Shown here in pieces: positions 10,620-35,769 of a stretch of 40,917 bases of DNA. Both the position numbers and the translations under genes were made by a program. Location of the stretch: positions 1 through 40,917 of IMG/VR virus record IMGVR_UViG_2721755676_000008. The stretch is one strand, 5' to 3'. The notes under the pieces were generated by a model. The model had not been told where the DNA came from. It was given only the letters and a program-made list of their open reading frames with translations, and did not search any database. This DNA is from a virus. Taxonomy: Duplodnaviria > Heunggongvirae > Uroviricota > Caudoviricetes. Numbering within the stretch: position 1 is the stretch's first letter; each line of letters begins with the position of its first letter.

Positions 10620-13600
10620 TACCGATATGCTCCACTTAACCGACCACCATCACGGGCCTGCTGTTGCATAAAGTCCGCTGCCGCTTTTTTCCCAAGGTCA
10701 TAAACCACCTTCAGGGCAGCCGGACCTATCTGCCCGTTCGTGCCATCGTTATTGATCTCAATGTTGTACTGCGGGGCAAACATCGCCATACCTGAACCAC
10801 CAATATCCGCCACAACCCCCAGCTTACCGTCAGCACCACGACGCAGTGGCAGAATGGCTTCAGGCCCAGCTTCCCCCATCACACCTGCACCTTTTGCAAA
10901 AGCAAAAAACGTCGGACGGTTAACCACCGTGCCACTGTAGCGACTCAAATCAGCAGACTGATAAACACCACCATCAGCATTGGGCGTCACACTGGCAGTT
11001 GCTGCACTCCCCCAGCCAAACGCCGAACCAATCCCCTTAACTGCCTGCATCATGGACATCTGAGCCATGATTTTTGCCAGATCAGAAAGGAGCGAGGCGG
11101 TAAAAGATTTGAAGTTCAGTTTTCCGGTGGTACAGAATGTTGCCAGTGCATTACCTGCACTATTAAATGCCGCTGTAAGCATCTGCTCCGCAGTGCCTGC
11201 CGCATTATCCGCATCTGCCGTGAAATTCTGAAACGCCCGCATGGCACCGTTTTTCCAGTTACCCTGAGCAATTTCAAGCTGTTGCCAGTAACGGCGATTC
11301 TCATTCAGTTGCCTGTTCAGGCTCTCCGTCAGCGCCTGCTCGGCCTTTCTGTAGTCATCCGTGTTATATGTCCCTTTCTGCTCACTATCCCGCCTCAACT
11401 GCTCCAGCTGTTGCTGGTATTTCTGGCGAAGACTCAGTTGTACCTGATATCGCTGCCGCTGCTGATCACCCATACCCACCGTGGCGATATCCAGGTCATG
11501 TTGCTGATGCTGAGAGCGCTCTTCTTCAGCCAGTTGACTGGTCAGCTGAATTGTTTTTTTCTTCAGATCGTTGAGTGCCGTCTGTTTCTGAAGCTCCTGC
11601 TGTTTTACATCCAACAGCGTCAGTGCCTGAATCAGTTCATCTTTACGGGCCAGCACACTCTTTTCATCTGCCGTCAGTTTTTTCCCGTCCAGATCGCTGA
11701 TGCGCTGCTGCAGAGCCAGAAGCTGTTTATGCGCTTCTGTCATCCTGTCAGTGGCAATGCCAGCTGACTGTCTTGCAGCAGCAATCTGTCCTTCCACCTG
11801 TGCCTGTTGCTGACTGTACTGCAGCAATAACCGGGTGGCCTCATCATTACGGGTTTCGCGTGTTTTTTTCTTACCGGATGCCAGGGCTTTCTCGTAACGT
11901 TCATTTTCACGTTGTATCGCCGCATCCCTGACAGCCTGGTCGGCGTACTGCATGGCATTAATACGCGCAATTTCACGCTGATGTCGTGCTGCTTCCGTTT
12001 CATTCATCCGGTTCAGTGCAGCATTTTCAGCATTACGTCGTTTCTGTTGCTCCTGATAATTCCGCTCTGCCTGCTCTTTTGCATCCTGCAAATCCTTCTG
12101 GCGTTTTTTCTCCTGAAGATCGTTAAGACGCTGCTGATCGTATTCAACCTGAGAAGATGATGCCGTCCAGGGGAGTCTTTTCGCCCGCGACACTTTCTCC
12201 TGTAAAGTGGCAATCTGTTCATCCAGCGAGTCTTCACGACCAATATTCATGGCCGCATCCCAGAAACGACTCCATAAATCAGACAGATACTTCAGCGTAC
12301 TGCCAAGCGCATTGAGGTTATTATCAATATCCGCAGTACGCCGACCGGTTTCCTCTGCCAGTGCAGACATGGCTATCCGTGCAGCATCACTGGACCGTCC
12401 CTGCTCCCCAAGGACGCGTATCTGCTCAAGCTGAGTGGCAGTAAGAAAATGCAGCTCATTGTCCAGAGCCTTCGCGGCATTTACAGGATCATCCTTCAGC
12501 CGCTTAAACTGATTTATGGTATCGCTGACCGACTGGCCAACCGATCGCTCCATCTGTGCGGCAGCTCTCGCCACCATACCGATATCGTTTCCACGAAATG
12601 CACCACTACCCACCACCTGAGCCAGCGCACCGGCTGCAGCATGTTGCGTGATACCATTCCCGGAAATAGCACGACTGAGCGTCCACAGCTGCCCGGCAGT
12701 GACTCCGGCATAATGCCCCGTCAGCGACAGCTGGCGGTTAAATTCTTCCCCCTCCTTCTGACCGTCATACCAGGCTTTACCCAGACCATAGACAGCCGCG
12801 GCAATACCGCCAATAACCCCGCCAAGCATCATGCCTTTCGGTGACATCAGTGTGTCTATCCACCCGGCACGGTTAGCCAGCGTTATCCCGGATCCCCTCA
12901 GCGCACCTAAATTGCCGCGGGCCAGTTCACCTATCAGAACGCCTATCTCCTGGCGGGCCGCTGCACTTTTCAGACCCAGCGAATGCGTGGCTTTTCCTGC
13001 CTGCTCCATTTTGCGGATATACACTTCTGCAGCACTGCTTACCCCCAGTTGGGCAGCCTTAGCACGAAGCAACTCAGAAGAAGAAAGATTCTGGCGGGTT
13101 GCCTGCTCTTTAAGCTGACGGATAAACGCCACTTTCTGTCGGGTAGCCTCTTCCTCAGCCTGTGTAAGAACACGGGTTTTCGCAGTAACCTCAGAAATCA
13201 GCGCCAGATAATCCTGCTGACCAATCCCGCCACTGTTTCTGGCCTGTCGGATCTGCTGCTGAATACGCTGTAATTCCTGCAGCCCCGCACTGGCCTGTTT
13301 CACACTGTCAATCTGACGATAAAACGCAGCAGCCGCTTTATCCTGAGCCTCCGCCAGAGCCATGGCCTGCGCCTGTTCCTCGCGCATTTTCTGGCTCAGC
13401 GCCTCCATGCGCTGGCGGGTTTTCTCCACCTCGCGGGCCATGCGTTCATGAGCCTGTGCGTTCTTCTCCACCGTCTGCGCATGGACGGATGCGGCTGTTG
13501 CAGCCGAAGAAGCCGCCTGCGTTGTCTGCCGGGCGGCCTGAGTCTGACGCTCCATAAAACGCTGCATACGGGCAGAAGACCGTTCTGCATCGCTGGCTGC

Positions 13601-30853: not shown

Positions 30854-31536
30854 GCCGCCATCTCCCTGACCAGTTTTTCTGCCTGCTGGCGAACCTGCGC
30901 CAGAAACGCCTCACCACATGCCTCAAGTTCATCGCGCCCGATGTAGCTGATTGCCGGTCCCTTCCAGGTCTTGTCGAAAACAGCAATAGCACCAGCGAAG
31001 AAAGCGCCTGTCGGCACCTGCTTCTCGTCCTTCGGGATAAACCAGGCAGGCAGTTCAAAACCAATACGCCCGCGAATAAAAGCAATATGATCTGCATCTT
31101 CCGGCCACCACACTTCGCTGGTGGCAGCTTTGATCAGGAAAACATAGCGTCCGCCCTTATCACGCATGGCACTGGCATGCTTCATGATGTAACGCATGCC
31201 GGTGATGTATTGCCCTTCATGCTGACTGGCGCGGCTGTATGGGGGATTACCAAAGGCAGCCCCTTTAAGCTCCGCAAGACGTTCTGACCAGTCATGCGCC
31301 AGCGCGTTGTCTTCCGCCGTGTAATACGCGGCACATTTGGCGTTATCACCGTCAGTGAACAGATCCAGAACAAACGGACCAAACAGGGTGTTAATTCCCC
31401 AGAAAATGTTGTCCGGCGTGCGCCACTGATCGCCCACTTCCTTCAGTTCATGGGCTGGTTTGTTCCGCAGTTCCACCAGCGCCTGGCAATATTTATTACT
31501 CATTAAGCCCCCACGTAATTCCCTGACAGATACCAC
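30850..31536 (-). CDS. Phage-type DNA N6-adenine methyltransferase (Dam-like)
   Basis: 228-aa ORF with NPPY motif (FGNPPYS); nin-region location typical of lambdoid Dam-like methylases. Confidence 0.75.
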   Translation of the reverse strand: MVSVRELRGGLMSNKYCQALVELRNKPAHELKEVGDQWRTPDNIFWGINTLFGPFVLDLFTDGDNAKCAAYYTAEDNALAHDWSERLAELKGAAFGNPPYSRASQHEGQYITGMRYIMKHASAMRDKGGRYVFLIKAATSEVWWPEDADHIAFIRGRIGFELPAWFIPKDEKQVPTGAFFAGAIAVFDKTWKGPAISYIGRDELEACGEAFLAQVRQQAEKLVREMAA

Positions 31537-31997
31537 TCTTCACCCGATACAGCGCGCTTGCTGCTTTTCCGTAAACACCGCTCACGACGCGCAAGAAAAT
31601 TGTTTCGCTCTTGCTGGGAGTGGCTTTCACGGAATGCCGCCATCCACACCGTTGCAGCACGACGGTATAAGCCCCTGGACTCCAGTCCTTCCGCCTGGCG
31701 GGTCAGGCACAAAATCACCCGGGGATCGTTAGTGCCGACATAGAAATTGCGCACAGGTCTGGATTCACGAACTGGTTGCGGTTCCGGCTCCTGCGGTATC
31801 TCAGTCAGCCGCGGGAAATGTCTGCGTGTATCCCCTTCACAACGGTGAGCCACACGCCCACTCTGACGTAACTTGCTTGCTGACTGCAGAACGCGCTGCC
31901 GTGAGTAACCTGCAAAAGCATCCGCAATGTCTCCGGAAGTACACCCCGGATGGGCTTCAATGAATTTCTGAACTTCATTCAAAAGACTCATGCTCAC
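31503..31997 (-). CDS. PerC-family-like transcriptional regulator with N-terminal winged-helix extension
   Basis: 164-aa ORF; C-terminal LESRGLYRRAATVWMAAF matches the PerC/Pch signature as recalled; N-terminal HTH-like region. Confidence 0.45.
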   Translation of the reverse strand: MSMSLLNEVQKFIEAHPGCTSGDIADAFAGYSRQRVLQSASKLRQSGRVAHRCEGDTRRHFPRLTEIPQEPEPQPVRESRPVRNFYVGTNDPRVILCLTRQAEGLESRGLYRRAATVWMAAFRESHSQQERNNFLARRERCLRKSSKRAVSGEEWYLSGNYVGA

Positions 31998-32812
31998 CCC
32001 CTGAATCCTGCCGGGATCTGGCTGTAGTCCACGTTGTCGTAACTGGCTTTGAAGTACGGGTCCTCGCGTCTGGCTGCAGATACCGCAGGAACTTCCCAGG
32101 GTTCTTCGAAATGACGATCCGGGCCAAAGAACGTGACAGCCTGTTTCACAAATTGTGTGCCGCTGTTACCCATCGCAGATACCCAGCCCGCGTAGCGTTT
32201 CACACCTTCCAGCATGGTTTCGGGTTTTACCCCCTCATTCAAACGGGCTTTCCAGGCTTTGAAGGCTGCAGATTTTGAATTGCCACCAGCACGTTTGGGG
32301 TATGCCAGCCATGCCTGCTCAAACTCCGGAGAGTATTCCGGTCGGTTTGAACGAACTCGCACAGACTCATCAGCAGATGCACCAACAGCTATTGGTTCAT
32401 TGACTGGTTCTTTGACTGGTTCAAAAGAGTGACTGGTTCTGGGTGAATCTCCTGCACTACCCCCTGGTGCAACTCCTGCACTACCTGGTGAATTTGCTGC
32501 ACCAGATAGTGAATTATTTGCACTACCCCCTAGTGAATCTCCTGCACCATCAAGATGAAGGAGATAGATATTACTTGAGTTACCTTTTTCACCTTTCCGG
32601 GTGACTTTTTTTACCAGCCCGGACTCACAAAGGGCCGCAATATGATTCATCACAGAACGTTTGCTAATCTCGCACTGGTCAGCAATATGCTGGTAGCTGG
32701 GCCAGCACTCACCCTGATCGCTGGCATTATCAGCCAGCTTGATCAGAACCAGTTTTCGCAATGGATTACCCACTCGAATTTTCATCGCTTTAACCATCAG
32801 CTCCATACTCAT
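31994..32812 (-). CDS. Replication initiation protein (N-terminal HTH, Gly/Ser-rich linker, C-terminal domain); O-like
   Basis: 272-aa ORF; N-terminal HTH (SYQHIADQCEISKRSVMNHIAAL); DNA iterons inside the linker-coding region, as for lambda O/ori. Confidence 0.65.
   Translation of the reverse strand: MSMELMVKAMKIRVGNPLRKLVLIKLADNASDQGECWPSYQHIADQCEISKRSVMNHIAALCESGLVKKVTRKGEKGNSSNIYLLHLDGAGDSLGGSANNSLSGAANSPGSAGVAPGGSAGDSPRTSHSFEPVKEPVNEPIAVGASADESVRVRSNRPEYSPEFEQAWLAYPKRAGGNSKSAAFKAWKARLNEGVKPETMLEGVKRYAGWVSAMGNSGTQFVKQAVTFFGPDRHFEEPWEVPAVSAARREDPYFKASYDNVDYSQIPAGFRG
32395..32550. repeat. Iteron array (candidate origin of replication) inside the replication gene
   Basis: Three copies of tgactggttc (32401, 32414, 32431) then about five copies of a ~21-bp unit (c)tcctgcactacc(ccc)tggtg (from about 32449 to 32548), followed by an AT-richer tract. 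Confidence 0.5.
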
Positions 32813-33033
32813 GCTGCACCTCCGAGATGCTTCATGTTTTTTCCGGAGCGAAAGGTTATAAGCGGCATACTGACGCGGTAATTACGGCCCAGCGGTTCAC
32901 AAATCACCTTCTGACATTCACGGTCCACCAGGCTAACACGTAGAACATGCCCTGCAGGTGTGGTGTACCACTGACCCGGACGAGGACAACGGAAAGTCTG
33001 ATTGGTAAACCGTTTGAAAATATTCCGGATCAT
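32809..33033 (-). CDS. Hypothetical small protein, translationally coupled between the Rha-like gene and the replication gene
   Basis: 74-aa ORF with start and stop overlapping both neighbours. Confidence 0.35.
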   Translation of the reverse strand: MIRNIFKRFTNQTFRCPRPGQWYTTPAGHVLRVSLVDRECQKVICEPLGRNYRVSMPLITFRSGKNMKHLGGAA

Positions 33034-34178
33034 TTGCGCCCCCTTACCTCTGAAGGGTTCAGCGACAAATTTATGAGGCAGGCCAGTGCCGAAGCATCAT
33101 TAATATAGTCATACAAGCTAACAGCCAGCGGAGATTCGGCTTTTGCCAACATAGGATAAAGCTGCTGCAGCCAGACCTGATGAATTGATGAAATGTAGGA
33201 ATAGAGAACGCTGGCGTTATGTGCAACGTCGCTCAGTACAGAGGGATTTGAAAGCTGTTTCTCCATCTGGTTAAAGGCATTGATGTATGCCTCTTTGAAC
33301 TGGGCAGCACGTTTACCCGTGAAACCCATAGCAAGAAACGCAAAGCCGTCGCGGGTTATTTGATAGCAAGGTAGTTTGCGGCCTGTGCAATCGGTGTAAT
33401 CACTCACCGAAAAATTGCGGGAAGTGAATGATGCAGAGCATTCAAGCGTGCGGATCTTTTTCAGTACATCGTCATGACGTTTGGAGAAGAAGTTGGCAAC
33501 AGCCAGGGATGAAGTAACAGCCTGACCATCAACGATGGCAATTTCAGGTTGAGTGAGGGTTGGGATCGTAGCCATGATGGCAGCCTCCGATAACAGTGAA
33601 TTACCTTCACCACCGGAAACGCCAATTTCGCTGGTGGTGAACTGAACGGGGTTGGCGTAACCGGCGTTATCGGAAACCGGCGCACCTTTCGGTGCCCCCG
33701 TCCAGCCCACCATAATTTGGGTGTGCACAGACGCAGACGATAAAAAAGACGCTGGCGCGTCATATATCGCCGATAACATTTCCAGGACGCCAATCCCGGC
33801 ACCCGCTTTATAAGGTGCCTGAACAGTGTAACGTCCCGGAATGGCAGAATCAATGTGCTGGTGGTCCTTCACACTCAACAAAATCACGCCTGAATTTCCA
33901 CAAAGGACTAAAGCACTCATGCGGGTAGTCTTTGCGAAGATAGATAACGCGCTGTGTTTCTGGCTCCCAACGAATAACATGGACATAAAGCCCTCTTCCG
34001 TCACGAAACCAGCGGTTAAGTTCCTGCACAACTCGCCCCCCACAGTCAGGTAAAGTTCTCTGTGGTTACTTACAGCCAGGTGATCTGGTAATCTGCATTC
34101 ATGCCGTAACAACAGGTGTTCAGCGACACTGACCACCAGCTGTTGCGACAAACGGTTATTTGCCGTTAAACTGTTCAT
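33030..34178 (-). CDS. Rha-family phage regulatory protein (Rha domain in the C-terminal half; N-terminal ~200 aa of unknown function)
   Basis: 382-aa ORF; Rha-like core around PEIAIVDGQAVTSSLAVANFFSKRHDDVLKKIRTLE; internal ATG at 33575 preceded by GGAGG could be an alternative start; ORF start overlaps the stop of the upstream gene. Confidence 0.55.
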   Translation of the reverse strand: MNSLTANNRLSQQLVVSVAEHLLLRHECRLPDHLAVSNHRELYLTVGGELCRNLTAGFVTEEGFMSMLFVGSQKHSALSIFAKTTRMSALVLCGNSGVILLSVKDHQHIDSAIPGRYTVQAPYKAGAGIGVLEMLSAIYDAPASFLSSASVHTQIMVGWTGAPKGAPVSDNAGYANPVQFTTSEIGVSGGEGNSLLSEAAIMATIPTLTQPEIAIVDGQAVTSSLAVANFFSKRHDDVLKKIRTLECSASFTSRNFSVSDYTDCTGRKLPCYQITRDGFAFLAMGFTGKRAAQFKEAYINAFNQMEKQLSNPSVLSDVAHNASVLYSYISSIHQVWLQQLYPMLAKAESPLAVSLYDYINDASALACLINLSLNPSEVRGRK

Positions 34179-35076: not shown

Positions 35077-35769
35077 ATGAACATAGGAAATCGAGTCAGA
35101 CAACTTCGCCAGGCGAAGAACATGAAAATCGCCGATCTCGCTGAAGCAATAGGAGTGGATGCGGCGAATATCTCGCGCCTCGAAACAGGTAAGCAGAAAC
35201 AATTCACTGAACAAGCCCTGAGTAATATTGCCAGGAGCTTAGGTGTTGATATTGCTGATCTCTTTACCTCAGACCTCAAAAGTAATACTGTATGTAAAAA
35301 CAGTATTAGTGAGGATGTTGCGCAGGTGAAGGATGTATTCCGTATTGAAATGCTGGATGTCAGTGCCAGTGCGGGAAATGGCCTTATCCAGGGCGGTGAT
35401 GTCATTGATGTGATTCATGCCATTGAATACAGAACTGATAATGCTGTATCGATGTTTGGTGGACGACCAGCAAATCACATTAAAGTTATCAACGTTCGTG
35501 GGGACAGTATGTGTCCAACCATTGAGCCAGGAGATCTCATCTTCGTTGATATCAGTATCAATCAGTTTGATGGGGATGGTATATATGTATTTGGTTTTGA
35601 TGATAAAATTTACGTCAAACGACTGCAAATGATACCTGATAAACTGCTGGTAATTTCTGATAATCAGATTTACCGCGAATGGGGAATTACCAGCGAAAAC
35701 GAACACCGGTTTATGGTCTTTGGAAAGGTCTTAATCAGTCAGTCACAAACCCTTAAGCGACACAATTAA
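35077..35769 (+). CDS. cI: CI-type prophage repressor (HTH plus S24 LexA-like peptidase domain)
   Basis: 230-aa ORF; N-terminal HTH (IADLAEAIGVDAANISRLETGK); C-terminal S24 peptidase motifs (VRGDSMCPTIEPGDLIFVD, catalytic Lys in FGKV). Confidence 0.85.
   Translation: MNIGNRVRQLRQAKNMKIADLAEAIGVDAANISRLETGKQKQFTEQALSNIARSLGVDIADLFTSDLKSNTVCKNSISEDVAQVKDVFRIEMLDVSASAGNGLIQGGDVIDVIHAIEYRTDNAVSMFGGRPANHIKVINVRGDSMCPTIEPGDLIFVDISINQFDGDGIYVFGFDDKIYVKRLQMIPDKLLVISDNQIYREWGITSENEHRFMVFGKVLISQSQTLKRHN

Follow-up and report, generated by a model that had tools for sequence, protein, structure and literature searches.

Background

The replication origin of bacteriophage lambda lies inside the gene of its own initiator, O, in the part that encodes the linker between the DNA-binding N-domain and the partner-recruiting C-domain. 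Four dyad iterons with a spacing of 20-24 bp are found there, followed by CACAAAAGACACTATTACAAAAGA..., and lambda and P22 share a downstream segment, CACAAAAGACA.TAT.ACAAAAGA, even though their iterons are different. The established plan of the lambda O type combines a type-specific N-domain with its iterons, a segment conserved throughout the family and a C-domain specific for the replication partner. The present study concerns a 40,917-bp stretch of Caudoviricetes DNA (IMG/VR record IMGVR_UViG_2721755676_000008), called the window below, which is a lambdoid prophage. Segment 32390-32547, among the codons for the linker of this prophage's initiator, is probably its replication origin, and it appears to follow the lambda plan with an initiator from a different protein family.

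Origins of the lambda type have four to six dyad sites of 15-19 bp spaced 20-24 bp apart, and the window has five sites of 15 bp spaced 21-24 bp apart. In both cases a segment conserved among relatives lies directly downstream of the iterons in the direction of transcription, and the N-domain and the iterons make up a specificity cassette. The downstream tract of lambda is roughly 80% AT whereas the corresponding GAACCAGTCA repeats in the window have a GC content of about 42%, and lambda O is followed by the gene of the helicase loader P whereas the window has no P gene, no loader and no helicase. In P22 a rep_origin is annotated within gene 18, which encodes an initiator of 271 amino acids, with direct GGTAAAAC-type iterons followed by CACAAAAGACAATATACAAAAGA. 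P22 differs from the window in that its N-domain is of the lambda O type and not HTH_36, and in that gene 12 encodes a DnaB-type helicase, which is absent from the window. The combination of genes 18 and 12 indicates that an origin-recognition module can be paired with a helicase and needs no loader. A preliminary description of the window had likened the locus to the lambda origin within O, and as far as comparison of sequences goes the likeness extends to the intragenic phased array, the conserved downstream segment and the division into N- and C-terminal modules.

Shiga toxin (Stx) phages of "Eru" types without O and P carry HTH_36 proteins near cI, and the Eru6 type has a Rha+Ash protein beside cI, as in the window (Llarena et al. 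2021, PMC8044961; Fagerlund et al. 2022, PMC8951638). Both papers sort the phages by gene content only and call them "non-lambdoid", and the terms "iteron" and "origin of replication" are absent from both texts (PMC8044961; PMC8951638). The origin layout in the window is, in contrast to that term, lambda-like. No origin is annotated in the GenBank records of SfV, mEp460, 1720a-02, cdtI or ST64B, and no prior description of this origin was found in the literature searched, although a mention in the review by Weigel & Seitz 2006 is possible.

The dyad units in the initiator gene

The initiator gene (31994-32812, minus strand) encodes 272 amino acids and was identified from its open reading frame (ORF), Pfam and PHROG. 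It matches Pfam HTH_36 (PF13730; E=1.8e-11, 44.1 bits, cut-off 25) and, over its full length (residues 3-271), phrog_270 "replication initiation protein" (E=1.7e-88). Genes with 98-100% identity are present in the phages SfV (orf39), cdtI, mEp460, 1720a-02, 2H10, Stx2c and some Stx2a, with 98.7-98.9% for the Stx2c and Stx2a copies, while ST64B sb42 is 88% identical at the protein level. Judged by these similarities the gene is of the SfV/ST64B/cdtI/mEp460/Stx2c-phage type (SfV orf39, ST64B sb42). Of 5,426 complete E. coli genomes, half have a match to this initiator module and about 900 a full-length copy.

Directly after the part encoding the winged-helix domain, in gene order, the gene contains five dyad cores of 15 bp (32443-32547, codons 89-124) with start-to-start distances of 21-24 bp. 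The unit has the pattern GTGCA-N5-T(T/G)CAC on the coding strand, or GTGMA-N5-TKCAC when read on either strand. In gene order, and given as on the plus strand, iteron 1 is GTGAATCTCCTGCAC (32533-32547; GTGCAGGAGATTCAC on the coding strand), iteron 2 is GTGAATTATTTGCAC (32509-32523), iteron 3 is GTGAATTTGCTGCAC (32488-32502), iteron 4 is GTGCAACTCCTGCAC (32467-32481), with the full consensus in both arms, and iteron 5, the last, is again GTGAATCTCCTGCAC (32443-32457), 2 bp from the conserved element described below. The pattern GTGMA-N5-TKCAC has seven matches in the window when 0.25 are expected, a number reached in none of 100 shuffles, and Tandem Repeats Finder gave no other tandem array in the whole window. 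About five repeats of around 21 bp had been reported in the preliminary description, which agrees with this count; the array is thus real, but the unit written there as "ctcctgcactacc...tggtg" is a phase-shifted view of the dyad 15-mer.

The repeats had also been placed in the linker-coding part of a helix-turn-helix replication protein, and both repeat sets are indeed found in codons ~89-138, while residues 94-156 are predicted by AlphaFold2 to be disordered. For an origin layout of the lambda type, three phased repeats in this part of the gene were taken as the minimum, and five candidate dyad units were found.

The repeat DNA can also be read as an alternative-frame ORF of 44 amino acids (32389-32523, minus strand; MQIIHYLVQQIHQVVQELHQGVVQEIHPEPVTLLNQ...), and individual units in relatives are truly translated in this frame (VQEIH). 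The frameshifted genes of loci L103 and L126 end in ...HPEPVTLLNQ and give products with the N-domain only. Together with the units read in the alternative frame, they suggest that the array is prone to frameshifts.

Comparison of related loci

The array was compared in about 170 relatives. Some 80 are IMG/VR loci with an identical N-domain; the others are phage records and a diverse set of 80 loci, taken from contigs that represent each species by one genome. N-domains in the diverse set, which includes Pseudomonas, Aeromonas, Shewanella, Marinomonas, Vibrio, Erwinia and Xenorhabdus, are 65-86% identical. Units were found at the same place in every relative, two to eight in each.

The 15-mer is read in two frames. 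In 84 relatives it occurs 218 times, 187 times as S/G-A-x-x-S/A and 31 times as V-Q-x-I-H, and both frames can occur within a single gene, for example AGT GCA GGA GAT GCA C and GTG CAG GAG ATT CAC in locus L089. Of 379 pairs of neighbouring units, 94% have starts 21-24 bp apart. Most spacings (79%) are multiples of three, but about 20% are 22 or 23 bp and occur in compensating pairs, such as 23+22, that restore the reading frame. These spacings indicate that the array is independent of codon periodicity, with the helical phase kept and the codon phase not.

The arms of the units are invariant, including third codon positions, while the central codons vary non-synonymously. When the arms do change between subfamilies, both change symmetrically: GTGAC-N5-GTCAC in Vibrio phage D67 and loci L122, L127 and L164, GGGCA-N5-TGCCC in Min27, GGGGC-N7-GCCCC in L154, and GTGCC-N7-GGCAC in L142 and L159. 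Among 118 non-redundant N-domains each recognition-helix sequence corresponds to one class of unit, with ...SVMNHI together with GTGCA/GTGAA, ...MRHI with GTGAC, RSTVKxHIR with GGGSM and SKSxVRxHI with GTGCC. Unit number ranges from one to nine among near-identical proteins (cdtI has eight), which together with the predicted disorder suggests that the encoded peptide is permissive. Single nucleotide polymorphisms in near-identical copies were compared with the positions of the unit arms, and the variation was too low to show avoidance.

The two frames, the fixed spacing, the invariant arms, the two-arm changes and the variable copy number argue for selection on the DNA and not on the peptide. 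The units are very probably binding sites of the initiator itself, kept as DNA in the relatives whatever the reading frame. The preliminary description had proposed that iterons within the initiator's own gene mark a probable origin, and the frames, the co-variation of half-sites and recognition helix, the spacing and the position at a mosaic junction all speak in favour of that proposal.

The invariant 36-bp element

The DNA on the far side of iteron 5 (32390-32442) encodes PRTSHSFEPVKEPVNEPI and stands out by its third-position conservation, its GC content at third codon positions (GC3) and its position. On the coding strand (32442-32390) it reads CC AGAACCAGTCAC TCTTTT GAACCAGTCA AA GAACCAGTCA AT GAACCAATA. 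The consensus is 36 bp, CCAGAACCAGTCAC TCTTTT GAACCAGTCA AW GAACC, and is nearly invariant in every relative from E. coli to Pseudomonas. On the plus strand there are three exact copies of TGACTGGTTC (32401-32410, 32413-32422 and 32430-32439), exactly where they had been noted earlier, and a degenerate fourth (32390-32398). They had been interpreted as a second type of iteron; instead, they are part of this family-invariant element, which stands in place of the AT-rich segment of lambda.

Third codon positions are 0.89 identical in the element, many of them 1.00, compared with 0.56 in the N-domain among 71 non-redundant relatives. GC3 is 0.15-0.46 in the element and 0.34-0.88 in the N-domain, where it tracks the host, and the rare AGA arginine codon of the element is retained in high-GC Pseudomonas. 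The 10-mer, too, is translated in two frames: the first GAACCAGTCA gives R-T-S-H, the following two E-P-V-K/N. In each of 109 related arrays, 2 bp separate the last unit from the element. Occurrences of the element in IMG/VR are essentially confined to this family of initiator genes, and in the family mean it is the AT-richest stretch relative to the local background.

The element is proposed as a candidate segment for unwinding or helicase entry. A more specific suggestion, which we regard as tentative and rather doubtful, is that it is a sequence-specific site for helicase entry or unwinding that does not depend on AT-richness and is probably recognised as single-stranded DNA, either by the conserved part of the proteins of this family or by some replisome factor that Gammaproteobacteria have in common. 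Such a site would explain the freezing of synonymous positions, the 2-bp register and the fact that the element stays with the N-domain while C-domains and loaders are swapped. If this is true, the element would be part of a portable cassette for recognition and opening that could be combined with any helicase-loading system and could also do without one of its own.

The preliminary description had also pointed to an AT-richer tract following the repeats. A slight dip in GC is real, with 0.40-0.41 at ~32500-32620 compared with 0.48-0.58 in neighbouring 100-bp windows. The tract itself (32550-32620, GC 0.40) holds the codons for the wing of the winged helix (KGEKGNSSNIYLLHLD) and is found on the N-terminal side, opposite to that of lambda. 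In the family mean it is a secondary bump of +0.07-0.08. It was rejected as a conserved unwinding segment because it codes for the wing, is placed N-terminally of the array and shows no conservation as DNA, and it appears incidental, outside the core of the origin. A terminator-like hairpin with a T-run (TCACCTTTCCGGGTGA CTTTTTTTAC; 32589-32604, plus strand) is located within this tract, antisense to the initiator gene; one such hairpin was found and 1.2 were expected, which is within chance.

Other roles for the element were considered. A hairpin-type site for single-strand initiation or primosome assembly was rejected, as both strands of the element fold no better than shuffled sequences (z +0.6 and +1.0). 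A promoter in or antisense to the array was also rejected: the sequence TTGACT in the element resembles a -35 hexamer, yet there is no sigma-70-like site in 31900-33100. A programmed frameshift at TCTTTTG was dropped because the T-run varies in relatives (TCTTCT, TCTCTT, TCTTTA). The number of GAACCAGTCA copies (EPVK/EPVN) varies among near-identical genes, for example EPVKEPVKEPVNEP or EPVNEP alone in proteins P0018 and P0016, and the first copy (AGAACCAGTCAC) is always present.

Domains of the initiator and exchange of partners

The N-terminal domain (aa 1-88; 32549-32812, minus strand) is predicted by AlphaFold2 with a pLDDT of 79-92 and has helices at residues 3-11, 17-28, 40-47 and 51-63 and a beta-hairpin wing at 67-85. 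The recognition helix is at about aa 51-63 and has the sequence ISKRSVMNHIAAL. Foldseek matches to the predicted domain are winged-helix proteins, among them DnaD-N (2v79) with a marginal E of about 0.09, and the model suggests a generic winged helix with a marginal resemblance to DnaD-N. The C-terminal domain (about aa 150-272; 31994-32365, minus strand) is predicted as a helical fold with a pLDDT of 60-79, and searches with Pfam, NCBIfam, PDB sequences and Foldseek gave nothing specific for it. It is presumed to contact a DnaC-type loader or the DnaB helicase.

The tblastn searches showed independent recombination of the two parts of the protein, N-terminal (aa 1 to ~140) and C-terminal, and the C-domain is thus an exchangeable module. 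Natural chimeras, such as P0068 and P0072, have a different N-domain with its own units joined exactly at the element to an identical C-domain. At least 15 types of C-domain were found among 76 IMG/VR loci, each with its own partner gene next to it. The partner genes encode lambda-P-like proteins (PF06992, 3.5e-36), DnaC/IstB-like loaders, DnaB helicases or primase-helicases. Some C-termini are similar to that of lambda O or P22 gp18 and are found with the matching partner; relatives in cluster C4, for instance, have an N-domain of the window type and a P22-gp18-like C-terminus followed by a DnaB-type helicase. The comparison suggests that the N-domain, the units and the element form one cassette while C-domains are swapped together with partner genes.

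The preliminary description had noted that no P- or DnaC-like loader gene is evident nearby. This was confirmed for the prophage, which has neither a loader nor a helicase gene, and the same is true for a 100% identical copy in E. coli. The C-domain type found in the window is followed either by a PerC-like gene, as here, or by DnaC-like and DnaB genes, as in Aeromonas phage AsXd-1 and in the Phytobacter (L113) and Kosakonia (L119) loci. Since the window has no loader or helicase of its own and relatives with the same C-domain have both, the prophage likely relies on DnaC and DnaB of the host. The idea that DnaC and DnaB are phage-borne only in hosts lacking DnaC was not supported, as the enterobacterial loci L113 and L119 carry both.

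Several database proteins (P0027, P0048, P0025, P0041) consist of an HTH_36 initiator fused to PerC, RusA, Dam or other downstream domains. They are probably the result of deletions or frameshifts in decaying prophages.

Comparison with other origin classes

The protein is not a member of the lambda O family, as it has no match to PF04492 (Phage_rep_O) at E<=0.01 whereas lambda O (5.7e-36) and P22 gp18 (6.9e-38) do, and BLASTP against P22 gp18 shows no similarity (best E 2.4). In SPP1, a phage of Gram-positive bacteria, oriL is located inside gene 38, the gene of the replisome organizer G38P, a position similar to that of the putative origin in the window. The DnaD-like class does not fit the initiator, because its score for PF21984, 24.3 bits, does not reach the cut-off of 27, and the C-domain has no match to DnaD or DnaB_2.

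Origins of iteron plasmids (pPS10 RepA, F RepE, R6K pi) resemble the window in having a winged-helix initiator, phased sites next to an opening segment and a variable number of copies. The iterons of plasmids are direct repeats to which monomers bind; dimers have an inverted-repeat operator of their own. In the window every unit is itself a dyad and lies inside a gene, whereas plasmid origins are usually intergenic and have DnaA boxes and AT-rich 13-mers, neither of which was found here. The locus was not assigned to this class because of its intragenic dyads, the lack of a DnaA box within 8 kb and a nearby GC content that is never below 0.40. Plasmid records with the N-domain are mostly phage-like circles of 38-48 kb and give a weak, indirect hint of autonomous replication. 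Ten of them are Arsenophonus nasoniae "plasmids" (H127-H136, 28-104 kb, mostly 38-48 kb) with an N-domain of the family at 60% identity, which may be phage-plasmids or circular phage genomes using such an initiator.

Proposed mechanism and alternative explanations

Initiation might proceed as follows. Dimers of the N-terminal winged helix would bind the five dyad sites of 15 bp (GTGMA-N5-TKCAC), and because the spacing of 21-24 bp is about two helical turns they would be placed on one face of the DNA. The aligned dimers could then form a nucleoprotein complex similar to the O-some. Opening of the duplex and delivery of the helicase would take place at the 36-bp element with its GAACCAGTCA repeats, 2 bp from the last site. 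The exchangeable C-domain would bring in the helicase by contact with a DnaC-type loader or DnaB, here supplied by the host. We infer the physical binding by the initiator, the firing of the origin at this locus, the unwinding at the element and the use of host DnaC and DnaB from the sequence comparisons.

Several observations weigh against an origin at this locus or weaken the evidence for it. No strongly AT-rich segment suited to unwinding is found near the array, where GC never falls below 0.40, and the excess of AT in the element is +0.08 to +0.12 over the local mean, giving a content that is still about 58%. Five of the seven matches to the unit pattern fall in the array but the other two are found elsewhere, at 11146 and 33596. 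The co-variation of recognition helix and unit was described with unit classes that were defined after the data had been seen, and it is confounded by linkage since the two are co-inherited, with less than 100 bp between them. Linkage alone predicts such co-inheritance, and the functional signals are therefore the dyad-preserving changes and the independence of frame. One subfamily, with the helix DRSTVRKHIK and units of the form GTAGGCC...AGCAC, has poor dyad symmetry. As the prophage has neither a loader nor a helicase, the route of helicase loading is conjecture. Finally, there is no DnaA box within 8 kb of the array and no IHF consensus near it, but the lambda origin is likewise not known to rely on DnaA boxes, so this absence is at most weak negative evidence.

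Some details of these exceptions can be added. The match at 33596-33610 is GTGAATTACCTTCAC. It falls in the Rha/Ash gene, which belongs to the same operon and is about 1 kb upstream, and could be due to chance or be an auxiliary site for the initiator; that at 11146-11160 is GTGCATTACCTGCAC, within the tape-measure gene. The DRSTVRKHIK subfamily (L129, L133, L135 and other Pseudomonas prophage loci) has units of 19 bp (TGTAGGCCCAGAAAGCACA). One unit in each of its arrays is a near-perfect palindrome (TGTAGGCCCACAGCCTACA), and the mode of binding may differ.

The main alternative, to which we give a small but real chance, is that the initiator binds the units for autoregulation, for control by titration or handcuffing, or as a roadblock to transcription, while the origin is located elsewhere in the prophage. 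Iteron initiators of plasmids (RepA, RepE, pi) use such sites for control as well as for initiation, and both the lack of a strong AT-rich segment next to the array and the additional site in the Rha/Ash gene would fit a role in control. The absence of any other repeat array in the window speaks, on the other hand, against a different location for the origin. The sites are intragenic and not at a promoter, and no promoter-like site is present around them. The 2-bp lock to an invariant element in all related arrays fits a unit for assembly and opening better than a pure operator, and in lambda and P22, which have this layout, the array inside the gene serves as the origin.

It is improbable that the element and the repeats are instead kept as a junction for recombination between N- and C-terminal modules, or as targets of some other protein, for instance a nucleoid protein of the host or a packaging protein. 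Short conserved boundary sequences are known at module junctions in lambdoid phages, and the mosaic boundary between N- and C-domains is found exactly at the invariant element. A junction may suit the element but not the variable units that track the recognition helix. The element is moreover conserved at ~90-100% per site across phages of Pseudomonas, Vibrio, Shewanella and E. coli, and, with flanks that have reached saturation at synonymous sites, its retention is better explained by direct purifying selection than by occasional exchange. Its near confinement to this gene family in IMG/VR also speaks against these readings.

That the repeats are only codons created by slippage for a flexible Gly/Ser/Ala/Pro linker and have no role as DNA is effectively excluded, since a linker of this kind would account for a Gly/Ser/Ala-rich peptide with predicted disorder, for a copy number that varies as slippage would make it and for the majority of spacings in multiples of three, but not for one 15-mer encoding unrelated peptides in two frames, for the 22- and 23-bp spacings paired to restore frame, for arms kept at third positions while central codons change the peptide, or for symmetric changes in a dyad that is useless to a linker.

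Relevance

An origin of the lambda style inside the initiator gene is ordinary in kind, but here it is found in a very common and medically relevant family of initiators. The initiator module is widespread and is present in Stx2c, Stx2a and cdt-converting phages, whose replication functions are undescribed in recent work. Toxin yield is reported to follow phage replication, and a located origin would be a target for studying or blocking the replication of toxin-converting prophages. The recognition helix and the type of unit would predict groups of incompatibility and specificity. The locus is also a clear natural case of coding sequence constrained as DNA, with one motif in two frames and a 36-bp element frozen at synonymous sites. 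The invariant element deserves experimental study, and so does the way in which a solo initiator loads the helicase with no loader of its own, a question that can now be tested directly.

Prophage context

The prophage has an integrase gene at 39694-40917 and a cI-like S24 repressor gene at 35077-35769 (plus strand). The early operon on the minus strand has the order Cro-like, CII-like, Rha/Ash protein, an ORF of 74 amino acids, the initiator gene and the PerC-like gene, and continues with Dam, LexA-like, RusA, KilA-N, DUF968 and Q, followed by the lysis and structural genes. The PerC-like gene (31503-31997, minus strand) encodes 164 amino acids and overlaps the stop of the initiator gene by 4 bp. 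Besides a PerC domain (2.3e-09) there is a weakly MarR-like N-terminus. The gene is a homologue of yfdN in E. coli K-12 and fills the slot of the DnaC-like loader in relatives. The Q antiterminator homologue is found at 27549-28343 (minus strand; PF03589, 8.2e-54), and its score of 31.6 bits against the zinc-finger model of DnaJ (CXXCXGXG), just under the cut-off, suggests a zinc-ribbon region.

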